Assembly (NCBI GenBank): GCA_041305385.1
Contig: JBFYLO010000011.1
Location: 8,577-72,576, forward strand
Origin: Candidatus Micrarchaeota archaeon
GTDB taxonomy: Archaea > Micrarchaeota > Micrarchaeia > Burarchaeales > JAKAKT01
DNA length: 64,000 nucleotides
Direction of reading: 5' to 3'
Positions 8,278 through 61,269 of the stretch are shown here, in pieces. Every line of letters begins with the position of its first letter. The first letter of the stretch is position 1. The position numbers and the translations under genes are program-made. The notes under the pieces were generated by a model. The model worked only from the letters and a program-made list of their open reading frames with translations. It searched no databases and was not told the origin of the DNA.

Positions 8278-8829
8278 TCACCTAGCTTTCTCCTCTTCAG
8301 CAGGCTTCCTCGTCACGCTCACCATGGCGTGCCTGAGAATCCGCCCGTTGTAAATGTATCCCTTCCTCATCTCCTTTGCGACAACCCCCTCTCCCCCCTC
8401 GCTTTCGACCATCTCGACCGCATCGCACCGGTCAGGGTCGAACTTCTTCCCAAGGCATACTATGGGCTCCACGCCCTCCCCCTCTAAGAGGTCCTCCAGC
8501 TTCTTGTGCAGGAGGCGGATGCCGTTCCGCAGCTCGCTCTCGCTGCTTGCGTGCATATGGGCCTCTGCGGCCTCGAACTCGTCGGCAAGGGCTATGAGCT
8601 TTGCAAGGACTGCCCCCCTGCCCTTTTCCGAGGCCTCGCCCTTCTCCTTCTCCGTCCGTTTCTGGTAGTTCTCGAACTCCGCCTGAAGCCTCTTCAGGTC
8701 ATTCACGAGCTCCGAGTTTTCCTTTTTCAATCCCTCGGCCTCGCTTTCCCCGGTTTCGAGAGCCACCTTGTCCTCCCCTTCTCCGCACTCAGCCCGCTCT
8801 TTCTGTTGATTCTCCCCTTCGACCATCAC
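8278..8829 (-). CDS. grpE: Nucleotide exchange factor GrpE
   Basis: Coiled-coil N-terminus [14 protein letters not shown] and the conserved GrpE C-terminal beta domain. It overlaps the upstream regulator gene by 4 bp. Confidence 0.85.
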
Positions 8830-15744: not shown

Positions 15745-17154
15745 CTAGTCGCCGAGCTTTTGGCTTATCTCCTTGTGCATCTGGACAAAAACTGCTTTGC
15801 ACCCATCGTGGGAGGCGTTGGAGTTGCAGCTCTTGAGGGCCTTTTTTACCTCGCTCTCGGAAACTACTGTTTGATACAAGTAAAGGCTTCTCGCATAAAT
15901 GAAGAACGGGCAATCACCACCACCTCGAGTCAAGTGCAGTCCAAGAGTTCCCATGTCAAGATGGGAAGAAGACAACAGTTCGCCAGGCAACCCAAAATAT
16001 GCATCGTATCTCGCATCGGCGTCTGGAGGAACTGGTTTTTCTCTCTTCGTAAACTTTACTGATTCAGAGCCGTACAAACCTCGCATAATCAATGGAAATG
16101 CATTGCCTTTAATCGTTATTATTGGTGCACTCGGAACACCGACCAAAGCTACATTCTTCCTTATCCGAACTCCTCCAAACTGTCCATTTGCGGCTTCTAA
16201 CCCTTCTACCGGATATCCGCCGAAGTCTCTTCCATGTATCATGAAAATCGTTGATTTGTCCGAACCAAAAATATAACTGAAAATGGCTAGATAAGAGACG
16301 GATTCTTCTCTCCATAAGTCTCTTATTGCTCGTACTTGTTCTTCAGTAACGCCGCTTATAAAACCGTCTCCGGATTTCATCTCTGTCTTTCCAATTAGGG
16401 GATATCTTTGCATAAAGTCTGCAAGCTTTCCTCTAAACTCAGGGTCATGAGTTAGAATTATCTTCAATTTTACGTCTCCAAAAAAAGCGCTTCCGACCTT
16501 CCCAAGAAATGAAGCATATTTTTCTCCCAACTGCAACACAGCATGTTTAACCTCCTCACCGTCCATTTTAAGCAAACTTGCATTTGCTGCAGAAGAGACC
16601 GCATATTCATAGCTTGGGACTACAAGCGTCAGCTCTTGTCCTGTTGCCCTAGCGATCTCAAAATAACGAGTTGCTTTTACCAACACGTCCCATGAAACCT
16701 TCGTTAGTCCAGAAATCTCCAGCTTCCATTGCGTTGGGAACTCAGTTATCCCCAATTCATCTATGACGCTTTTCGGGATATCGGCTCCGCCATCGAAAAT
16801 TGGTTTCGGTGGTGGGTTCTCTAAAGCCCATTTTACAATTCTCCCATTCGTCACCCCATGTGCAACTACGTCACCATGGTGTAAAAAACAGAAACCGCCA
16901 ATAATCTGTCCATCTCCACCTCGAACTCTTTTTTCAATTAGACTTAGATTTTCACTAAAAAACGCAGAAAATCTGGCCCCGCGGTATCCCTCCACGGTCT
17001 CCTCGCTAACCACTCCTTTTTTTAGAGGGCCAAAAACAGTTATTGGTGCAAATGTCTCTTTACTGGTCCAATGCTGTGTCGCCATCGGGAAAACGTGTTT
17101 CGTGAAATGTCTAGACGTCCCATCAGTTGAAAGAATCCCCTGTCGCATGCCCAT
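15745..17154 (-). CDS. Conserved hypothetical protein (469 aa); weak ASKHA-like N-terminal DxGxT motif
   Basis: Contains ILSTDGTS, GGDGQIIGG and HHGD. No confident family assignment. It is co-directional with and immediately downstream of cysS. Confidence 0.35.
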   Translation of the reverse strand: MGMRQGILSTDGTSRHFTKHVFPMATQHWTSKETFAPITVFGPLKKGVVSEETVEGYRGARFSAFFSENLSLIEKRVRGGDGQIIGGFCFLHHGDVVAHGVTNGRIVKWALENPPPKPIFDGGADIPKSVIDELGITEFPTQWKLEISGLTKVSWDVLVKATRYFEIARATGQELTLVVPSYEYAVSSAANASLLKMDGEEVKHAVLQLGEKYASFLGKVGSAFFGDVKLKIILTHDPEFRGKLADFMQRYPLIGKTEMKSGDGFISGVTEEQVRAIRDLWREESVSYLAIFSYIFGSDKSTIFMIHGRDFGGYPVEGLEAANGQFGGVRIRKNVALVGVPSAPIITIKGNAFPLIMRGLYGSESVKFTKREKPVPPDADARYDAYFGLPGELLSSSHLDMGTLGLHLTRGGGDCPFFIYARSLYLYQTVVSESEVKKALKSCNSNASHDGCKAVFVQMHKEISQKLGD

Positions 17155-28007: not shown

Positions 28008-28110
28008 CAGATTGAAATCACGTTTTAGCGGAAAAAGTTAAAAACGTTAACAACTCGCTAGCCGTATTTTTTCAGAAAGGCTTATGAACCCCAGGAGTTC
28101 AGATTAACTC

Positions 28111-29613
28111 ATGGTTCCCTCTAGTTCAAACGGACATGAAAACGGCAAGGAAAAGGAAGAAAAAATTGAGAAGGAGGAGAAGAAAGAAGAGAAGAGGGAC
28201 GAGAAGCCGGAGAAGAAAGAGGAGGAAAAAAAGGAAGAGAAGCGAGAGGAAAAACGGGAAGAGGAGAAGAAGAGTGAGAAGAAGGACGAAAAACAAGAGA
28301 AGAAAGAGGAGAAGAAAAACGGGGAGAAGCCCGAGAAAATCAAATTCTTGTTCGTTTCATTCGAGGGATTGATAGGCGACCTCGCGTGGCAGGTGAAGAG
28401 GGAGGGCCACGAAGTCAAATACTACATACACTCCAAGACCGAAAAGGACGTCGCAGACGGTTTCGTGGACAAGTGTGATGACTGGAAGGCGCTCAAGGAT
28501 TGGGCAGACGTGTTCGTGTTCGATGACGTGGGGTTCGGGAAAATTGCAGATGACTTGAGAAAAGAGGGGAAGGCAGTCGTGGGCGGGAGCGAATACGGGG
28601 ACATGCTCGAGGATGACAGGGAGTTCGGCCAGGACGAGCTCAAGAAGCTTGGCGTCAATGTTCTCCCCCACTGGGACTTCAAGGACTTCGATGCTGCCAT
28701 AGAGTTCGTGCAGAAGAATCCTGGCAGGTATGTGATAAAGCCAAACGGGAAGGCGCAGAACGAGAAGGAGCTCTCCTACATCGGGCAGGAGGAGGACGGC
28801 AACGACATCATCAACGTGCTTGCCCACTACAAGAAGAGCTGGTCCAAGAAGCTCAACGACTTTCAGCTTCAGAAGTTCGCCCAGGGGGTCGAGGTCGCTG
28901 TCGGGGCCTTTTTCAACGGGAAGGATTTCGTTTATCCGATAAACGTGAATTTCGAGTACAAAAAGATGTTCCCAGGAGACATAGGGCCGAACACCGGGGA
29001 GATGGGAACGCTGATGTTCTGGTCCCCACCAACCACGCTGTTCAATGAGACGCTTCTCAAGATGAAGGATGCGCTCGCGCAGGCAGGATACGTTGGCTAC
29101 ATCGACCTCAATTGCATCGCCAATGCGAAGGGAATTTATCCGCTAGAGTTCACCTCGAGGTTCGGCTACCCGACAATCAGCATACAGATGGAAGGGGTGA
29201 CGAGCAACTGGGGGGAGTTCCTGAGGGCTCTTGCCAAAGGCGAGACTACTGAGTTCAGGACCAAGAAGGGATTCCAGGTGGGCGTGGTGATTGCAGTTCC
29301 CCCATTCCCGTTCACAGACCTGTCTTCCTTCAGGAAATATTCCGAGGATGCAACCATCATTTTCAAGAAGCCCATGACTGATGGCGTGCACATCGGGGAT
29401 GTGAAGCTGGTTGAGGATGACTGGCGGCTTGCGGGCCAATCTGGCTATGCAGTGGTAGTGACGGGCTCGGGGCTGACAGTCGACGATTCACAAAAGCAGG
29501 CCTACAAGCGAATTGAGAACATCCTGATTCCGAACATGTTCTACAGGACCGACATCGGGGAGCGCTGGTCCAGGGACAGCGACATGCTGCACACCTGGGG
29601 CTACTTGTACTGA
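28111..29613 (+). CDS. Phosphoribosylamine--glycine ligase (PurD)-like ATP-grasp enzyme with a K/E-rich N-terminal extension
   Basis: PurD signatures: KFLFVSFEGLIGDLAWQ (cf. KVLVIGSGGREHALAWK), GDIGPNTGEMGT (cf. GDKDTGPNTGGMGA), EFTSRFGYPT (cf. EFNCRFGDPE), and the C-terminus AYKRIENI..YRTDIGER. No other pur genes are nearby. The start is uncertain: either the ATG at 28111 or an internal TTG around 28345. Confidence 0.6.
   Translation: MVPSSSNGHENGKEKEEKIEKEEKKEEKRDEKPEKKEEEKKEEKREEKREEEKKSEKKDEKQEKKEEKKNGEKPEKIKFLFVSFEGLIGDLAWQVKREGHEVKYYIHSKTEKDVADGFVDKCDDWKALKDWADVFVFDDVGFGKIADDLRKEGKAVVGGSEYGDMLEDDREFGQDELKKLGVNVLPHWDFKDFDAAIEFVQKNPGRYVIKPNGKAQNEKELSYIGQEEDGNDIINVLAHYKKSWSKKLNDFQLQKFAQGVEVAVGAFFNGKDFVYPINVNFEYKKMFPGDIGPNTGEMGTLMFWSPPTTLFNETLLKMKDALAQAGYVGYIDLNCIANAKGIYPLEFTSRFGYPTISIQMEGVTSNWGEFLRALAKGETTEFRTKKGFQVGVVIAVPPFPFTDLSSFRKYSEDATIIFKKPMTDGVHIGDVKLVEDDWRLAGQSGYAVVVTGSGLTVDDSQKQAYKRIENILIPNMFYRTDIGERWSRDSDMLHTWGYLY
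28136..28343 (+). repeat. Roughly 200-nt strand-asymmetric polypurine (GA-rich) low-complexity tract encoding a K/E-rich peptide
   Basis: More than 90% A/G on the plus strand (gaggagaagaaagaagagaag...). It encodes EKKEEKREEKREEEKKSEKKDEKQEKKEEKK at the 5' end of the purD-like ORF. Confidence 0.6.
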
Positions 29614-29683
29614 TTGCCGCGCGTATTTTCCCCAGCAGCGTATTAGTTGTTAGCTATTTATTCTCCGCAGTCCATACCCTATC

Positions 29684-31297
29684 ATGCCAGAACTAACCGA
29701 CTCGAAGCAAACTCAGAATCCCGACACTATTAAGCTCATTAACCTTCTTGGTAACCTAGATGGACCAACCAGAAATGAAGGATGGTTAACGGATCTCTGC
29801 ATACTCATCAAGACCGGCGAGAATTGGAAAATAGCGGCTGCGAACTTCGAGAAGCTTTCCAAGTACTTGGAAGAAACTCTTTGCCTTGCGGAAACATCCA
29901 ACTTTCGTCCCTCGATTGTAGCTGAAATAGTGGCGTTTCTAGGACTTAAAGGCTGTGCTGAGGCAACGGAATTTGCAGCCGCGGTATCGAACAGCCCTCA
30001 AAATAAGTTTGCTTCGGCGTTTGCCCAGGAACTAGTCAGGAATATCGCAGACGGCGGTTGCAACTACTTCGCTTCAAACTACGCAATCTTCAGGCAAGCC
30101 GTTTTACGCAACATCTCAGATCCCTTCATGCAGATTCTTCTGCACAGCTCATTCAATGTCGCGAAATCTCCGGCTATCCAGGATGATATCAACAAATTCA
30201 TCTATGGGGAACCAGATACACTCAAAAAATCCCACAGTATAATTTCGCACTTCATGATTAACAAGGACAACCCGCTCAAACCAAAGTGGTTCAGAAAAAT
30301 ACTGGCGTTGTATTCCGACAGGGCAACTCTGGGCCTTACTAACGAGGAAGTATGCGGTTTTGACGGAATCAAGAGCACAATCGGGCGTTCTCTTGAAGAC
30401 CCCGAGCTTATGAGAATGGCGTTCGAGAGCGGAAACGCGGAAATTGGAAAAATAGTAGTGGATCGTCTTGACAGCTTCAGGAACAATCCCGCCAAAGAAA
30501 AATCAGAGCAATATGCCCGCTTCATTCAGGAGGCTTATTCGAAAGCTCTTGAAGGCGATTCGTATCATCTTACTCTAGTGTCGTTCATGCAAGAACGACG
30601 CTTCGATGCTCCAGCCAAACTTCTGAAAGAAAATTTCTTTACAAAAATTCTCCCTAACATAAAGAATGATTCAAGTTGGGCATACCCGATTATGGCAAAA
30701 AACTGCATCGCAGAATTCGATTGGGGTTTCTATAAAAAAGTTTTCAGCAAGATGAACGAACTGTACGAGAAAGAGCAATTGGACGAGCTGTCCAAAATAG
30801 TCGGGATATTGACGGCAGAAATAGGGGCATTCCCCGCGCCGGAAGTGGGGTTTCTTAAGAAAATAGAAATAGCCGCCTATCTTCTTTCCAGCGGCGGGAT
30901 TACCAAAAAGCTCTTTGGTTCCATTGGCGCAATCCTGGGGCTTGCCAAAGGGAACATCCCGGTAAGCCGCGTCTTGAACCTAGTGGGCGAGGACGAGAAG
31001 GCACGGACTTTTGCTCTCATGTCGCTTTCCGTTGCTGTCGAATACACCGCGTTCAGTTTTAACCTCAAACCAGAGCAAGGACAAGAAGACGGCGGCTTCG
31101 TTATTGGCGAATTGGATGACGCGGTGGAAAACACATTCAAAAAAATGGGCAAAAAGGAAAAGGGGAAGCTTTTTTCAATGCTTCATGACGAGAAGATGCA
31201 GGCCGACTTGCTGGGGAACCCAAAGACGAAATACGGCGCCCTCTATCTACTGAAGCTGTTCGATTACCTTTCTGAAAAAGAAAATGCCCCTAATTAA
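29684..31297 (+). CDS. Hypothetical alpha-helical protein (537 aa), no recognisable domain
   Basis: Long clean ORF within an AT-rich island (~42% GC versus ~55% in flanks). There are no TM segments, and the sequence is predicted helical-repeat-like. Confidence 0.5.
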   Translation: MPELTDSKQTQNPDTIKLINLLGNLDGPTRNEGWLTDLCILIKTGENWKIAAANFEKLSKYLEETLCLAETSNFRPSIVAEIVAFLGLKGCAEATEFAAAVSNSPQNKFASAFAQELVRNIADGGCNYFASNYAIFRQAVLRNISDPFMQILLHSSFNVAKSPAIQDDINKFIYGEPDTLKKSHSIISHFMINKDNPLKPKWFRKILALYSDRATLGLTNEEVCGFDGIKSTIGRSLEDPELMRMAFESGNAEIGKIVVDRLDSFRNNPAKEKSEQYARFIQEAYSKALEGDSYHLTLVSFMQERRFDAPAKLLKENFFTKILPNIKNDSSWAYPIMAKNCIAEFDWGFYKKVFSKMNELYEKEQLDELSKIVGILTAEIGAFPAPEVGFLKKIEIAAYLLSSGGITKKLFGSIGAILGLAKGNIPVSRVLNLVGEDEKARTFALMSLSVAVEYTAFSFNLKPEQGQEDGGFVIGELDDAVENTFKKMGKKEKGKLFSMLHDEKMQADLLGNPKTKYGALYLLKLFDYLSEKENAPN

Positions 31298-31880
31298 TCC
31301 GCTCTTTTGCGCTGCAGATAGCAGCATAATTCTTCCTGACTCTCCTCAGCACTTCAGCAACTGCCCTCCCGAACCTCCTTGCTTTCCAGAACGAGACATG
31401 CGTCCTCCCATGCATATGGCCGTCAACAGGCAGATTGAGCGAGAAGGCCGGGTACTTCTTCCCGTAAACCGCGGTCTCATCGATGTGCCCAGTCTTGAAA
31501 CTCACTTTCAGCCTGGGTATCCTCCCCAGGACCCTTCTCAGCTCGGCCCTGTTCACATTGTGCGGCCACTCCACGTTTATATCCGATTTTCTGGCCGCAG
31601 TTGTGAGGTCTATGGGGATATAGAGCGCATTTCCCTCTCTCTTCATCACCTTCTTCGCCCCGGCCATTGTGGTCTCCTCCTCACCGGTGAAGTAGAACTT
31701 AATCCTCCTATCCCTGACCCGGGGCATGACCGAGCGAAGCACCTCGGCAACGCAGATGATGTTGTCCAGATTCCCGTAGTAATACCGCCTCTTCTTTCTC
31801 CTAAGCAGCTTGATGCTGGCGGCATTCCAGACGGTGTCGCAGTGAACGCTTACGACGATTTTTCCGTCTTTTTTAGGCAT
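31290..31880 (-). CDS. Small putative zinc hydrolase with M28/M42-like metal-ligand pattern (HxD..D..EE..H), hypothetical
   Basis: VSVHCDTVW, GNLDN, FTGEEETT and DGHMHGRTH. At 196 aa it is much shorter than canonical M20/M28/M42 enzymes. It overlaps the upstream ORF end by 8 bp in a convergent arrangement. Confidence 0.3.
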   Translation of the reverse strand: MPKKDGKIVVSVHCDTVWNAASIKLLRRKKRRYYYGNLDNIICVAEVLRSVMPRVRDRRIKFYFTGEEETTMAGAKKVMKREGNALYIPIDLTTAARKSDINVEWPHNVNRAELRRVLGRIPRLKVSFKTGHIDETAVYGKKYPAFSLNLPVDGHMHGRTHVSFWKARRFGRAVAEVLRRVRKNYAAICSAKERIN

Positions 31881-31932
31881 AAAATCGGGAGAATGATATG
31901 CGGGAATAGCTTAAAATAGGCACTGGGGCCAG

Positions 31933-33048
31933 TCAGCCGAACGTAAATGCATAGATTCGTACATTCTTCCCGCTAATCCGGAGTTCGAGCCTGTGCTGTC
32001 CGTAGGATTCACCCCGAGCGACTCGGTACATCTCATGCCCGGAGACATCGGTCGATCCCGCGCTTTTTCCGTCTATAAATGCCTCGATTTTTCCGCCCCC
32101 GCTACTTCCGGCAACCAGGTTCACGTCCTTTGCAGTGTAGACGAGGATTACTCGCCCACCAGGACTCGAGAGTTCAAGTGAGTCCCCGGCATCAATCCAC
32201 TTTCCTTCTAGATAAGGTTTGTTGGATTCAAAAGCTGCAGGGAGCTTAAAGTCGTGTTCTCCGCCAATTTCCATAATCACGGGCTGGTTCCCGAGAGGCG
32301 CCCGCCTGAAGTTGTAGCCAAAATAAATCTCGGGGGTCTGGATGCCCTGATAGTTGATAGTTTCAGTTCCCTGGGGGGCTGATTTATCAGGGCCAATCTC
32401 GTTTCCGTTCAAATCCTCGAGCAATCCCCTTATCCTGCCCTCAGTTTCTTCATACCCCCCTTCCCCGAAGTGAGTGTAGACAATTTTTCCATTCTTGTCA
32501 ATGAGGTATTTTGCCGGCCAGTAGTGGTTATGGTAGGCACGCCAGGTAGCATAGTCATTGTCAAGGACAACGGGATAATAAAGGCCGTTCTTTTCCGCTG
32601 CCTGTTTCACGTTTTCATAATTTTTCTCGAACTCGAATTCTGGGGTATGAACACCGATTATGAGGAGGCCCTTGTCTGCGTATCTCGTCTGCCATGCGCG
32701 GAGATAAGGGAGTGTCCTTATGCAGTTTACGCAGCTATAAGTCCAGAAGTCAACGAGAATGATTTTCTTTCCAATATTCTCGCCAATTGAAACCTTTTCT
32801 GTATTAACATAACCATGAAGTCCCGAAAGCTCCGGAGCCATCCTCCCAATCTGCGCACTTTCGATACCAAACGCTCCAAGGAGCGCCCTCTGCAAGTCCT
32901 CGCTAGTCACAATAACCACCGCCAAGGCGATCATGAGGAAAAAGCCAATGAACAGCAAATCTGCTTTTTCCAAGAAAATCCCATTGCTTTTCGCTCTTTC
33001 AGAATATAAACCGATAGGTTTTGAAAGCGAACTGGAGAAAAGTGCCAA
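31933..33048 (-). CDS. Membrane-anchored TlpA/ResA-like thiol:disulfide oxidoreductase with a C-terminal DipZ-like extension
   Basis: N-terminal TM, thioredoxin fold with WTYSCVNC (CxxC), and a ~150-aa C-terminal beta-rich domain. Confidence 0.65.
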   Translation of the reverse strand: MALFSSSLSKPIGLYSERAKSNGIFLEKADLLFIGFFLMIALAVVIVTSEDLQRALLGAFGIESAQIGRMAPELSGLHGYVNTEKVSIGENIGKKIILVDFWTYSCVNCIRTLPYLRAWQTRYADKGLLIIGVHTPEFEFEKNYENVKQAAEKNGLYYPVVLDNDYATWRAYHNHYWPAKYLIDKNGKIVYTHFGEGGYEETEGRIRGLLEDLNGNEIGPDKSAPQGTETINYQGIQTPEIYFGYNFRRAPLGNQPVIMEIGGEHDFKLPAAFESNKPYLEGKWIDAGDSLELSSPGGRVILVYTAKDVNLVAGSSGGGKIEAFIDGKSAGSTDVSGHEMYRVARGESYGQHRLELRISGKNVRIYAFTFG

Positions 33049-37530: not shown

Positions 37531-37597
37531 GGCCGAGTGGAAAGTGCTCTGCCTGACCGCCGAAGGAGACTGCATTTCCTAGGAATTCGGCAAACGC
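37531..37597. repeat. Right copy of the direct repeat bracketing the HEPN/MNT cassette
   Basis: See the left copy at 36438-36498: about 70% identity over ~65 bp in the same orientation. Confidence 0.45.
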
Positions 37598-37980
37598 TAT
37601 CTGTTCGACTTAGATTTTTTTAAAAGGGGTTGCGCCATCATAAATCCAGAATAGATGACGCCTAACAAAATTATCGCTTCTAGAGGACCATACAATGGAT
37701 AATACAAAAAAAAGTAACTTCTTGGTTCATAATTGCAGCAGCAGGGAGATTCTGAGGCTTTCCGCGGGCATGGCAGTTTGTCAGCCCCTTTTTCGCATTC
37801 AACTATCGAATCGACTCTCTCTTCGCACCATCGCTCACATTCTGGGCCAATCATGCACTGTAAATTACTAGTTGAACCAGCACTGGAATTATGCAAAAAC
37901 ACCAGAACAGAATTCAGAAATATGAACATGGCCAATGTCAGCAAAGCAAGCTTCCAGTTCAGATAATGCGTCAGATGCAC
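37597..37980 (-). CDS. Cys-rich small membrane protein, hypothetical
   Basis: Two terminal TM helices flank a Cys-rich loop (CMIGPECERWCEERVDSIVECEKGADKLPCPRKASESPCCC). It lies in an AT-rich stretch. Confidence 0.35.
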   Translation of the reverse strand: MHLTHYLNWKLALLTLAMFIFLNSVLVFLHNSSAGSTSNLQCMIGPECERWCEERVDSIVECEKGADKLPCPRKASESPCCCNYEPRSYFFLYYPLYGPLEAIILLGVIYSGFMMAQPLLKKSKSNR

Positions 37981-48219: not shown

Positions 48220-48951
48220 TTAATAGGGTGTCTGAGCTCTGACCGTCACCGTTCCTACTATAGTCCTTATGTTTGCGCTTCCTTCATCAGCAAAGTAGTA
48301 CCTGACGTACAGCTTACCGTTGTATTGTTGACCGGAGGCGAGGTTGCCACCAATAACTATGCTGTCTCCATTCGCGTCAGTGCACAATAATGGGTCATTG
48401 GGCGAGAAAGCCTGACCCATTGAAGCTGAAATGTCTTGAGCTTCAAAATCCGTTGGGCCGATTTCCTGGGTGCATTTCATGCCTACGAAATGAATGGTCT
48501 TCTGCAACCCATTAACTAGAGTTACGTTCAAGGTTCCATCAGTGGACAAATACGTCTTCTGGCAGTTTATTCCTGCAGGCATCATGCAGATTTCTGGGCT
48601 GCCAGGATAGCACTCGCTCGTATACGAAAGCAAAACAATCAAACAGGATATCCCCAATAAATTGAATAATAGCACCGATATTCCCCCCCAAACCCACTTC
48701 TTTTTATCTATCTGCTTTCTGGTAATAAACCAAAACACCAAAGCAAAAAGAGAAATAACGACCGAAAAACCGAAATACGGCAATTCTACATGGTGTGCGC
48801 AATCGTCTATCAATAAGAAAAAAATGTTATACGTCAGAGCGAGAACAAGCAGGGCGAGAGAGATTTTGGACAGGTTCTGCGGCAGTCTCATGTGTGTTTT
48901 TTGTTCTGAAGAAGTTCTTATCTTTTTCGTTCGAAATGATTTGGTTCTCAC
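48220..48951 (-). CDS. Membrane protein with extracellular C-terminal domain, hypothetical (AT-rich island)
   Basis: Three TM helices then a Cys-containing beta-rich domain. The alternative ATG at 48891 would remove the 4-bp overlap with htpX. Confidence 0.4.
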   Translation of the reverse strand: MRTKSFRTKKIRTSSEQKTHMRLPQNLSKISLALLVLALTYNIFFLLIDDCAHHVELPYFGFSVVISLFALVFWFITRKQIDKKKWVWGGISVLLFNLLGISCLIVLLSYTSECYPGSPEICMMPAGINCQKTYLSTDGTLNVTLVNGLQKTIHFVGMKCTQEIGPTDFEAQDISASMGQAFSPNDPLLCTDANGDSIVIGGNLASGQQYNGKLYVRYYFADEGSANIRTIVGTVTVRAQTPY

Positions 48952-58812: not shown

Positions 58813-61269
58813 TTGAACTGGCACTACTCGCTTTTCGTAATACTCTTCTTGGCCTCGTCTCCTTTTGCTACGCTGATAGCCGAACAATCTACAGACAAAG
58901 AGATTTCTGTGCCGACTTCGATTTCTGAAAACAAAATTGGGATGGCAAACCCGGCAGCAGTTTACTGCATTGAGCTTGGCTATGGTTACAAAATCACCAA
59001 AGGGCCATTGGGCGAATATGGGACTTGCATTTTCCCGGACAAGACCGAGTGCGAAGAGTGGCAGTTTCTTGCTGGTAAATGCGGGCAGAGCCACTCCTAT
59101 TGCGCGAAGCAAGGCTATGGGATAAAAACGATGAGCGATGGGAAGGACCCGTTCTCCCCGGAATATGCGGTTTGCACTTCCGTTGATAAAAAAATTGAAA
59201 TTGATTCTGTTTCAAAACTATTCGACCTGCAAACAAAATCACTGAAAGGGTCGATTACTATTTCGGTCAAAGAAGCCGTAGCTGCCCCCACATCGTCTAC
59301 ACAAGCCCAGGAAACTCCATCAGTTCTTCCCCCATCTTTTGACTGGAGAGATTACAATGGTCAGAATTGGATGACTCCAGTTAGAGACCAAGGCAGTTGT
59401 GGTTCATGCTGGGTTTTTTCGACAGTTGGAGTGGTTGAGGCTCTTTTTAACTTACTTGACAATACTCCAGGACGAGATTTTGACCTCTCAGAACAGACCA
59501 TAGTTTCTTGCAACGGAGTGGGTAATGGTTGTCTTGGAGGAGACCCAAGATTTGCGCTCTCATACATTAAAAATACCGGAATCCCGGATGAGATGTGTTT
59601 TCCCTATGTTGCTCAGTACGCGTCATGCTCAAATAGATGTCCAGACTGGATGGAAAGATCAGTAACCATAACGAGTCATGGGGAAATGTGGAACGTCTCC
59701 GGTATGGAACTTGTTCCTCTGGATATCGAAACAGTAAAAAGATATCTAATCGAGAAGGGACCACTTGAAACTGTTATGAGCACCCGTGGCAGTTTCATAA
59801 ATTTTAACGGAACTTTTGTTTATGTTTGTAACGGTGATCGAAATCTCACGCATTCTGTAATCATTACGGGTTATAATGATAACTTTACCCTCCCTCAAAA
59901 CCCATACACGAACAGCGGAGGTTACTGGATTATTAAAAACAGTTGGGGTTTAGTGGGTGATGGGTATATCTACATAAAATATGGGGAATGCGGCGTGCCT
60001 ACGATGATAACCTACGCTAAAAAATGCCTGGAGGCAGGAGCGCAATGCAATAATAATCTTCAGTGCTGCTCTCGCGATTGTAATGGCGGGACGTGTTCTC
60101 AGCGATGTGGTGATGATGATTGTGATGGAAATGAAACCTGTGAAACTTGTAAGCAAGATTGTGGTCGTTGCTCTTGTGGAGATGGGGAGTGTACTCATAC
60201 TGGCATTACGAGCCAATTTGAAAGATGCGATAATTGTCCAGAAGACTGTGGCCAGTGCACAGGGTGCGGAGACGGTTTTTGCGTCCCCCCTGAAAACTGC
60301 TTAACGTGTCCAGGAGATTGCATTAGTTGTTGTGGTGACGGACAGTGTTTAGGAAACGAAACAACAGTTACATGTCCAAATGATTGCGGAAGCCTTTGTG
60401 GCGATGGAGCATGTAATGGGTACGAAGACACCCGTGAATGCCCAGAAGACTGCGGTTCATTGTGCGGCGATTGGACATGCAATGGAAATGAGACCTGTTT
60501 ATCCTGCCCGACAGACTGTTTCTACTGTTTCGCCGACCCAGCGGTCCAAAACATCAGTTGGACGCCGGATTCACCAACTAACTGTAGCGGATACGGCAAC
60601 GTTGAGGTGAAGAACATAGGGACTTTCCCGAGCCCACGGGGGGTTTACTCAATTTATGCCGATAACATACTCATCGGTCAAGGGTTTACTAGTGAACTCC
60701 CGCCAGGGCGGTCCAACTACATCGGCTTCCTTTACAATCCCATATCAACGTCCTCACCTTACCGGATGATTGAAGCATCGATAAATGTTGTCAACGATTC
60801 TAACCCTGAAAACAACCGGCTCGTCAAGCAGATAACTCTCAACTGCTACTGCGGTAACGGGAGATGCGATTTGAATGAGAATACAGCAACCTGTCCTTCT
60901 GACTGCCCACTCCAATTCTGCGGAGATGGAACCTGCAATTCTGGAGAGACGTGCTCTTCATGTCCGAGTGACTGCGGAACGTGTATATGTACCCCAGCCT
61001 ATTTCTGCAAAGACATCAACACGCTGGCGTACAGAAATTTCAAGTGCTACGTTAGCTATTCGAGCTGCAATGGGGGAATCTGCTGCAATGGCAAATGCCA
61101 AAAGGCACTCCCCGGAGCTACGTGCATCGATGTCAATACGGTGGTGGCAGCACAAAACATTGCGCAGGTGCAGGGCCCTGAGCTTCCGACTGTTCTCGCA
61201 GTTCTGAGCATGGTTGTCTTGGTGGGGGTAGTGCTCTATGCGTTCATAAAAATAGAAACGAGGTTCTGA
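58813..61269 (+). CDS. Membrane-anchored secreted papain-like (C1) cysteine protease with N-terminal DUF333 domain and a C-terminal array of Cys-rich repeats
   Basis: TTG start with signal peptide. DUF333-like NPAAVYCIELGYGYKI..GTCIFPDKTECEEWQF. C1 peptidase motifs are QGSCGSCWVFSTVG (catalytic Cys) plus downstream His/Asn regions. There are at least eight repeats of C[GS]DGxCxxxExxxxCPxDCGxxC. The C-terminus has a TM anchor LPTVLAVLSMVVLVGVVLYAFI. The island is AT-rich. Confidence 0.75.
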   Translation: MNWHYSLFVILFLASSPFATLIAEQSTDKEISVPTSISENKIGMANPAAVYCIELGYGYKITKGPLGEYGTCIFPDKTECEEWQFLAGKCGQSHSYCAKQGYGIKTMSDGKDPFSPEYAVCTSVDKKIEIDSVSKLFDLQTKSLKGSITISVKEAVAAPTSSTQAQETPSVLPPSFDWRDYNGQNWMTPVRDQGSCGSCWVFSTVGVVEALFNLLDNTPGRDFDLSEQTIVSCNGVGNGCLGGDPRFALSYIKNTGIPDEMCFPYVAQYASCSNRCPDWMERSVTITSHGEMWNVSGMELVPLDIETVKRYLIEKGPLETVMSTRGSFINFNGTFVYVCNGDRNLTHSVIITGYNDNFTLPQNPYTNSGGYWIIKNSWGLVGDGYIYIKYGECGVPTMITYAKKCLEAGAQCNNNLQCCSRDCNGGTCSQRCGDDDCDGNETCETCKQDCGRCSCGDGECTHTGITSQFERCDNCPEDCGQCTGCGDGFCVPPENCLTCPGDCISCCGDGQCLGNETTVTCPNDCGSLCGDGACNGYEDTRECPEDCGSLCGDWTCNGNETCLSCPTDCFYCFADPAVQNISWTPDSPTNCSGYGNVEVKNIGTFPSPRGVYSIYADNILIGQGFTSELPPGRSNYIGFLYNPISTSSPYRMIEASINVVNDSNPENNRLVKQITLNCYCGNGRCDLNENTATCPSDCPLQFCGDGTCNSGETCSSCPSDCGTCICTPAYFCKDINTLAYRNFKCYVSYSSCNGGICCNGKCQKALPGATCIDVNTVVAAQNIAQVQGPELPTVLAVLSMVVLVGVVLYAFIKIETRF

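Follow-up and report, generated by a model that had tools for sequence, protein, structure and literature searches.

The window, that is, the whole stretch of 64,000 nucleotides analysed here, corresponds to positions 8,577 to 72,576 of the forward strand of contig JBFYLO010000011.1 (assembly GCA_041305385.1) from a DPANN archaeon of Candidatus Micrarchaeota, and the present work concerns three adjacent genes in it, coding for a PurD-like ATP-grasp ligase, a helical protein of 537 amino acids (aa) and a miniature metallohydrolase of 196 aa. The window has a GC content of about 52% and carries archaeal markers, namely Nre and geranylgeranyl reductase, with named homologues from Candidatus Micrarchaeota, Micrarchaeia and Ca. 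Fermentimicrarchaeum limneticum. The locus is probably a composite and not a module, consisting of a conserved ligase/hydrolase backbone with a hydrolase of minimal size and of a recent insertion of the gene for the 537-aa protein, which appears to be an alpha-solenoid. Its features are listed below in window positions (ORF, open reading frame; L105, the locus of the closest relative).

28111–29613, plus strand: gene of the PurD-like ATP-grasp ligase, 500 aa, directly upstream of the 537-aa gene
28111–28350, plus strand: lysine/glutamate (K/E)-rich low-complexity tail of the PurD-like protein, residues 1–80
29612–31326, no strand: 1.7-kb segment without a counterpart in L105, carrying the 537-aa gene and 70 bp upstream of it
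29654–29662, plus strand: TATA-like box CTATTTATT, read from the sequence, with its centre about 26 nt before the ATG at 29684
29684–31297, plus strand: gene of the 537-aa protein, a predicted soluble ARM/HEAT-type alpha-solenoid of a rare DPANN-restricted family
31284–31919, plus strand: antisense shadow ORF of 211 aa opposite the 196-aa gene; not a gene
31290–31297, no strand: overlap of the two stop-codon regions, 8 bp, CTAATTAA
31290–31880, minus strand: gene of the 196-aa mini-hydrolase, a putative minimal and strongly basic dinuclear metallohydrolase of clan MH (M42/M28/M20-like)
31933–33048, minus strand: thioredoxin-like/redoxin gene, 371 aa, on the same strand as the hydrolase gene and upstream of it (Pfam Thioredoxin_10 6e-25, Redoxin 4e-14)

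The 537-aa and 196-aa genes are convergent and share 8 bp at their 3′ ends. Judging from the sequences, both are genuine genes, since 44 homologues were found for the 196-aa product and the 537-aa product has a relative of 30% identity to which it can be aligned from end to end. The exact 196-aa product is also present in the protein collection, while the shadow ORF 31284–31919 has no Pfam match, is not found as an exact sequence in that collection and has a GC content at third codon positions (GC3) of 0.486, which is not native-like. A preliminary description of this DNA, made from the sequence alone, had reported a GC content of about 42% across 29.65–31.3 kb. The 537-aa gene is indeed low in GC, but its mean is 46.1% (GC3 0.528) and just a single 400-bp interval (30400–30799) comes down to 42%, the flanking genes having 52–57% GC. 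The GC3 of the 537-aa gene is the seventh lowest among 57 window ORFs (z = −1.3; window median 0.67), and since the ligase (0.735) and the mini-hydrolase (0.706) are native in this respect, the low-GC stretch comprises the 537-aa gene alone.

In L105, whose hydrolase is 88% identical to that of the window, the gene order is thioredoxin-like gene, hydrolase and an opposed PurD, the latter two overlapping by 4 bp with no gene between them. The BLASTN comparison with this locus gave two blocks of homology, window 28324–29611 at 82.8% and 31327–32100 at 78.3% identity, between which lie 32 bp in L105 and 1715 bp in the window. The insertion has remodelled the final few codons of the hydrolase. The 537-aa gene was not found at the ligase/hydrolase junction in any of the relatives examined, including L105 and L005. 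Genes of the 537-aa family located elsewhere have GC contents near those of their hosts, 0.554, 0.554 and 0.475 against 0.593, 0.562 and 0.503, the corresponding pair in the window being 0.461 and 0.523; the low GC3 and GC relative to the host fit a fairly recent acquisition from a donor of lower GC content.

No flanking direct or inverted repeats, transposon-like boundaries or RNA element were found at the insertion. With regard to the features by which genomic islands are recognised, the 537-aa gene alone is absent from the relatives' site and, to a modest extent, atypical in composition, and mobility signatures are lacking. The TATA-like box suggests, as far as can be read from the sequence, that the inserted gene has an archaeal promoter of its own and is transcribed into a leaderless mRNA, the latter because the box lies about 26 nt before the ATG according to the spacing rule of archaeal promoters. 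A scan for sigma-70 promoters and terminators returned counts at chance level, and its model is not applicable to archaea. Within 31260–31310 both stop codons are followed, on their respective strands, by an oligo-T run, namely TTTTCTTTTT for the hydrolase gene and CTCTTTTG for the 537-aa gene; these runs may be archaeal terminators, each lying within the 3′-terminal coding sequence of the gene opposite.

The arrangement of the two remaining genes was followed from both sides. On the hydrolase side, 16 genome loci were collected via the hydrolase, to which L105 and L003 were added. Enough DNA for a judgement was available at 20 distinct loci, namely 15 genome loci (L105 among them), the extra contig L003 and four metagenome loci. 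At every one of these the hydrolase gene is convergent with the ligase gene, which lies immediately downstream of it, and the pair is kept across at least five flanking contexts. The stop-to-stop spacing is 0–50 bp in L005, L006, L008, L010, L013, L016, L017, L018 and L105. It amounts to 470–890 bp in group A, the interval there being occupied by a small membrane protein, and to 1677 bp in the window, where it is occupied by the 537-aa gene. With a membrane protein in some lineages and the solenoid here, the same junction has accepted different genes.

The membrane-protein slot lies at 8569–9030 of L001, and the same slot is present in L009, L011, L012, L014, L015, L035 and L043; in Fermentimicrarchaeum-like genomes it holds a multi-pass protein of 153–285 aa without a Pfam match. 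On the other side of the hydrolase gene, the thioredoxin-like neighbour codes for 371 aa (GC3 0.54) in the window and for 121 aa with a Thioredoxin_10 match only in L105 (1825–2190), and in L005 (9833–9943) a C-terminal remnant is all that is left of it. This flank of the hydrolase gene, too, is changing, the thioredoxin-like gene being a neighbour only in the window's sub-lineage.

On the ligase side, a scan of metagenomes with the ligase alignment yielded 80 loci at 58–80% identity. The hydrolase was present in four of them (L028, L030, L035 and L043), always convergent and spaced −2 to 492 bp from the ligase, and was not found past the ligase in 54 other ligase loci with at least 700 bp of DNA there. 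In the neighbour-joining tree of the ligases most of the hydrolase-positive loci form one clade, with L013 and L043 placed elsewhere, and two loci inside the main clade, L025 and L027, have no hydrolase. Most lineages with the ligase lack the hydrolase, on which the ligase therefore does not depend, and the convergent orientation means that the two genes are not co-transcribed. The hydrolase gene is a patchy accessory gene which is always located at the 3′ end of purD, and a functional link between the two proteins is possible.

The mini-hydrolase contains the motifs H13-C-D15, G36-N-L-D39-N, G66-E-E68-E69 and D153-G-H-M-H157, so the preliminary description, which had noted HCD, GNLDN, GEEE and DGHMH in an overlapping convergent ORF of 196 aa, was right both on all the motifs and on the overlap, here 8 bp. 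Residues H13, D15, D39, E68, E69, D91 and H157 are invariant in the alignment of 44 sequences, where the mean column identity is 65%. The search of a collection of 5.8 billion proteins revealed 43 homologous clusters with 53–88% identity, all of 191–219 aa, and the profile search added only two further mini-hydrolase clusters, giving about 45 in total. Wherever a source is named for a member of this small, tight family, it is a Micrarchaeota archaeon. The family is also very basic, with a median isoelectric point (pI) of 10.35 and one of 10.5 for the window protein, which contains 42 lysine and arginine residues against 18 aspartate and glutamate residues. Strong basicity is atypical for clan MH. 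A surface as basic as this points to a substrate, or a partner, that is acidic.

As for known families, the Pfam profile M28 (PF04389) matches the protein with 21.6 bits against a cut-off of 21.3 (residues 4–98 corresponding to positions 10–100 out of 193), M20 (PF01546) scores 22.5 bits, which is under its cut-off of 24.6, and M42 (PF05343) scores 15.1 bits, under 23.2, on residues 37–100 only. Some of the homologues have a precomputed PF05343 match, and one member of the family is called M28 family peptidase by NCBI. A 197-aa gene beside P0045 in L004 was considered as a further mini-hydrolase and rejected. Neither the 196-aa nor the 537-aa protein has a match in PHROGs or PADLOC, and a phage or defence origin of either gene was rejected on these grounds.

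The AlphaFold2 model of the 196-aa protein is a confident one of the alpha/beta type (predicted local distance difference test, pLDDT, 86; predicted template modelling score, pTM, 0.86). Its top Foldseek matches in the PDB are the M42 TET aminopeptidases FrvX, PhTET1, PhTET2 and PhTET3 (E about 5e-6; template modelling score by query, TMq, 0.57–0.67), the M42 TET structures compared being 1Y0R, 1XFO, 2PE3 and 2WZN, followed by M18 enzymes and the isolated catalytic domain of DapE (M20). Among the 50 PDB matches listed, those of M42, M18 and M20 lead with a probability of 1.00 and E values down to 4.7e-6, and pyrrolidone-carboxyl peptidases and amidases are also present with lower TM scores. 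The family profile was aligned by hhalign to the sequence of PhTET2, taken from 1Y0R and verified at 100%, and D39 was found to correspond to D182, E68/E69 to E212/E213 and D91 to D235, which are ligand-site residues in PhTET2. The spacing between D39 and E68 is 29 residues and that between E69 and D91 is 22, compared with 30 and 22 in PhTET2, and the first histidine is separated from the bridging aspartate by 26 residues (H13–D39) instead of 114 (H68–D182). The predicted fold is thus that of M20/M28/M42 and not an unrelated one, and the earlier assignment of this fold and ligand order at about half the usual size is borne out by Foldseek, by hhalign and by a length of 196 aa against the 353 aa of PhTET2 (about 55%).

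The 157 residues by which the two proteins differ in length can all be accounted for. Compared with PhTET2, the mini-hydrolase is devoid of about 55 N-terminal residues, of 88 residues between the first histidine and the bridging aspartate and of 22 residues before the last histidine, and has nine extra residues at the C-terminus. The 88 missing residues make up the PDZ-like domain of dimerisation and oligomerisation in PhTET2, and as that domain is absent and the protein is small, a TET-type dodecamer is not expected. The order of ligands characteristic of clan MH (histidine, bridging aspartate, glutamate, aspartate or glutamate, histidine, with the catalytic glutamate preceding the glutamate ligand) is present, and so, in the AlphaFold2 model and its Foldseek matches, is the alpha/beta fold of the catalytic domain. 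The protein does not have the M42 hallmarks, namely a PDZ-like domain between the first histidine and the bridging aspartate and a PF05343 score above the gathering cut-off, nor those of M20, where PF01546 remains below its cut-off and a length of 196 aa leaves no space for a lid domain. The H-x-D-T-V motif resembles that of M20. Mature M28 enzymes have about 280–300 aa and the mini-hydrolase is much shorter.

Taken together, the sequence and the model describe the 196-aa protein as a putative clan-MH hydrolase of minimal domain content whose co-catalytic site is complete, and in which H13, D39 (bridging), E69, D91 and H157 would be the ligands of two metals and E68 would act as the general base. 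We infer its activity, its substrate and its link with PurD: the bond predicted to be attacked is most likely an N-terminal peptide bond or another amide, and the enzyme itself would be a small one with an open site which does not form a TET dodecamer.

The ligase is best read as a divergent PurD of Micrarchaeota archaea. Pfam assigns GARS_A (7.6e-13) and GARS_C (2.1e-7) to it, its sequence matches in the PDB are PurD only and nearly full-length, and the representative of its 90%-identity cluster is named phosphoribosylamine--glycine ligase by NCBI. The orthologues in 13 Micrarchaeota loci show 74–85% identity, and in F. limneticum and six other loci the ligase has a PurL-PurQ ... phosphoribosyltransferase-PyrK-PyrD neighbourhood, PurS being seen in L001/L002. 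The K/E-rich tail comprises 80 residues in the window ligase compared with about 20 in relatives, and gives rise to a pronounced local skew in GC and AT and to a serine/phenylalanine-rich antisense shadow ORF at 28104–28418. The ligase at 8577–10934 of L002 (the same as L017; JAVZHX010000001, Micrarchaeia DRTY-6) has 785 aa and is interrupted, right after the conserved GEMG of the ATP-grasp site, by an intein of about 340 aa that has homing-endonuclease motifs of the LAGLIDADG type, the TBLASTN match to this ligase breaking at residue 300. Three metagenome loci, L065, L083 and L090, have ligase ORFs of 845, 710 and 751 aa instead of the usual 425–460, which may hold inteins or fusions.

The 537-aa protein has no match in Pfam or NCBIfam. 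A word-indexed search retrieved only the protein itself and the relative with 30% identity mentioned above, and the exhaustive HMMER search of 1.84 billion representatives brought the family to 14 proteins, the only names attached to which are Parvarchaeota and Anstonellaceae. Three relatives located on long contigs are found in three unrelated housekeeping contexts. The AlphaFold2 model based on the 14-sequence alignment is confident and all-helical, with about 32 helices (pLDDT 85.4, pTM 0.78), which agrees with the earlier view of a helical protein without a recognisable domain, as no library matched it. The protein possesses no transmembrane segment, has a pI of 5.8 and is most strongly conserved in the C-terminal third, at about residues 385–460.

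In the model, stacked helical hairpins or triplets form an alpha-solenoid, the arrangement by which ARM/HEAT proteins are defined, and the structural matches are generic ARM/HEAT proteins with TM scores of 0.2–0.33 and 5–15% identity, none with E below 1e-3. No ARM/HEAT Pfam repeats were detected among the 14 members, only single weak matches to IFRD (0.0011), SIL1 (0.033) and UNC45 (0.08). No enzymatic or carrier-protein features were found in the solenoid. According to the model it is most likely a cytosolic alpha-solenoid that serves as a protein-binding scaffold, a function that only the class of its fold suggests. Members of the family are rare, evolve fast and have no fixed genomic partners; those that can be identified belong to DPANN or other archaea. 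The 538-aa gene of F. limneticum (L001 1976–3592) was considered as a homologue and rejected (E 6.4). Three of the family proteins, P0050, P0053 and P0055 (148–171 aa), contain the conserved C-terminal third only and may be fragments from short contigs, or else this third may be an independent domain.

These observations fit a history in which a divergent PurD-type ligase gene and a gene for a clan-MH hydrolase of about 195 aa, transcribed toward each other, would form the backbone, with their 3′ ends touching or overlapping in many relatives, and a 1.7-kb gene, preceded by a TATA-like box of its own, would have been inserted exactly at the 3′–3′ junction in no lineage but that of the window. 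Several points weigh against such a composite. No repeats, integrase or tRNA in the window mark a mechanism of insertion, PHROGs gives no match, and the GC3 deviation (z = −1.3) is a modest one; the 537-aa gene could instead be an old gene lost from all the sampled relatives, which is less parsimonious. The Pfam matches of the hydrolase are borderline and confined to its N-terminal half, a sequence search of the PDB with the protein or with the family profile returned nothing even at E = 10, the hhalign probability with PhTET2, a single-sequence template, is low (12%), and the equivalences of H13 with H68 and of H157 with H323 in PhTET2 would hold by motif and spacing arguments. The ligase, for its part, may act on a substrate other than that of PurD, because its score with TIGR00877 purD (104 bits) is far below the equivalog cut-off of 288.

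The preliminary description had suggested a horizontally acquired module of three genes for making or trimming a peptide or an amide-linked product, which we hold to be very improbable. The three genes are adjacent in the window, the middle one is low in GC and the pairing of ligase and hydrolase is suggestive of it; of the synteny expected for the three genes, the co-occurrence of hydrolase and ligase has held in 20 of 20 loci. The 537-aa gene, however, is missing from the junction in all the relatives examined and its homologues lie in unrelated contexts, it is the only one of the three that is foreign in composition, and the solenoid has nothing of an enzyme or a carrier protein, while the genes of the ligase and the hydrolase are native in GC3 and conserved by vertical descent, with 63–88% identity. 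The three genes do not co-occur, and the three-gene module is therefore not supported; the synteny seen from the hydrolase side and from the ligase side led us to reject it. The role given to the ligase in that proposal is not supported either, given its PurD-only structures, its PurD name at NCBI and its PurS, PurL and PurQ neighbours. Another reading is a functional pair of two genes, in which, by analogy, the ligase would make an amide bond and the hydrolase would cleave or trim a related one, with the 537-aa gene as an unrelated insertion. The adjacency in all 20 hydrolase loci with enough DNA and across at least five contexts, the same position and orientation at L013, at L043 and in the main clade, which are three separate places of the ligase tree, and the fact that the hydrolase was never found away from the ligase speak for such a pair. 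It is nevertheless doubtful, as the genes are convergent and not co-transcribed, 54 ligase loci of 58–80% identity, including L025 and L027, are without the hydrolase over at least 700 bp past the ligase, the junction tolerates insertions (the transmembrane protein in group A and the solenoid in the window), and a tiny or overlapping intergenic target could alone preserve the adjacency.

It can also be supposed that the 196-aa protein is an inactive M42/M28 remnant, a pseudoenzyme whose fold has been retained for binding and which catalyses nothing. Relative to TET peptidases it is shorter by about 45% and has lost the domain that builds the oligomeric chamber, the basicity is extreme for clan MH and the Pfam scores are borderline. 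Yet the five ligands, the catalytic glutamate and the aspartate of H-x-D are invariant in 44 sequences with about 65% mean identity, the length is uniform and the D39–E68 and E69–D91 spacing (29/22) is close to that of PhTET2 (30/22), so that we consider a pseudoenzyme unlikely. A bolder proposal, that the hydrolase of about 195 aa is self-sufficient and works with the PurD-type ligase, either removing or proofreading an amide product or processing an acidic partner, and that, separately, the 537-aa solenoid is a DPANN-specific fast-evolving interaction protein involved, for example, in host contact, is put forward as a rather speculative one.

Low GC3 is also found elsewhere in the window, with the lowest values of 0.41–0.49 belonging to three ORFs on the minus strand, 15745–17154, 37597–37980 and 48220–48951, which code for 469, 127 and 243 aa and have no Pfam match. 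The 818-aa protein encoded at 58813–61269 on the plus strand, with a papain-family C1 protease domain and DUF333 (GC3 0.46), is another compositionally atypical accessory gene product. Orphan or accessory genes across the genome seem to be recognisable by a low GC3.

If the hydrolase is active, a co-catalytic site of clan MH works within about 195 residues without an oligomerisation or lid domain, which would make the protein a useful scaffold of minimal size for enzymology and an example of protein miniaturisation in the genome-reduced DPANN archaea. If the pairing with the ligase is functional, the nucleotide metabolism of these reduced archaea would include a ligase/hydrolase step not recognised before, and the invariable place of the hydrolase gene at the 3′ end of a PurD-type gene is a testable hint of a link with purine metabolism; a literature search found no paper naming Micrarchaeota, aminopeptidase and purine together. 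The solenoid family enlarges the pool of DPANN-specific proteins without an annotated function and is represented here by what is probably a recent single-gene insertion. Current understanding is not overturned by the locus.

Among known systems, the solenoid can be compared with the N-terminal domain of symplekin, the PP2A A subunit, beta-catenin, importins and CAND1, which are generic matches, the 537-aa family being archaeal (DPANN) and having no annotated relative. The ligase shares with PurD the ATP-grasp A and C domains, the PurD-only structures and the PurS, PurL and PurQ neighbours of its group A relatives, and differs from it in scoring below the equivalog cut-off, in the K/E-rich N-terminal tail and in the intein present in one relative. 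Pairs of an ATP-grasp enzyme and an MH-clan enzyme are known, namely LysX/LysK in LysW-mediated lysine synthesis and carnosine synthase/carnosinase. The likeness, which is one of analogy, is that an ATP-grasp amide ligase is encoded beside an amidohydrolase of the M20/M28/M42 type; the present ligase, however, is PurD-like and not RimK/LysX-like, there is no carrier protein, the genes are convergent and most of the ligase orthologues have no hydrolase. The M42 TET peptidases are the closest structural match of the mini-hydrolase, with the same order H...D...EE...D...H and near-equal spacing, from which it differs in having no PDZ-like domain, a pI of about 10.4 and a subthreshold Pfam M42 score. 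With M28 and M20 it shares the clan and the co-catalytic site, and the catalytic domain of DapE is a match to its fold, but the lid and dimerisation domain of M20 is absent and the profiles match the N-terminal half only. Within the M42/M28/M20 clan the mini-hydrolase represents a new variant, unusually basic and with a minimum of domains, which is limited to some Micrarchaeota and tied by its position to purD.

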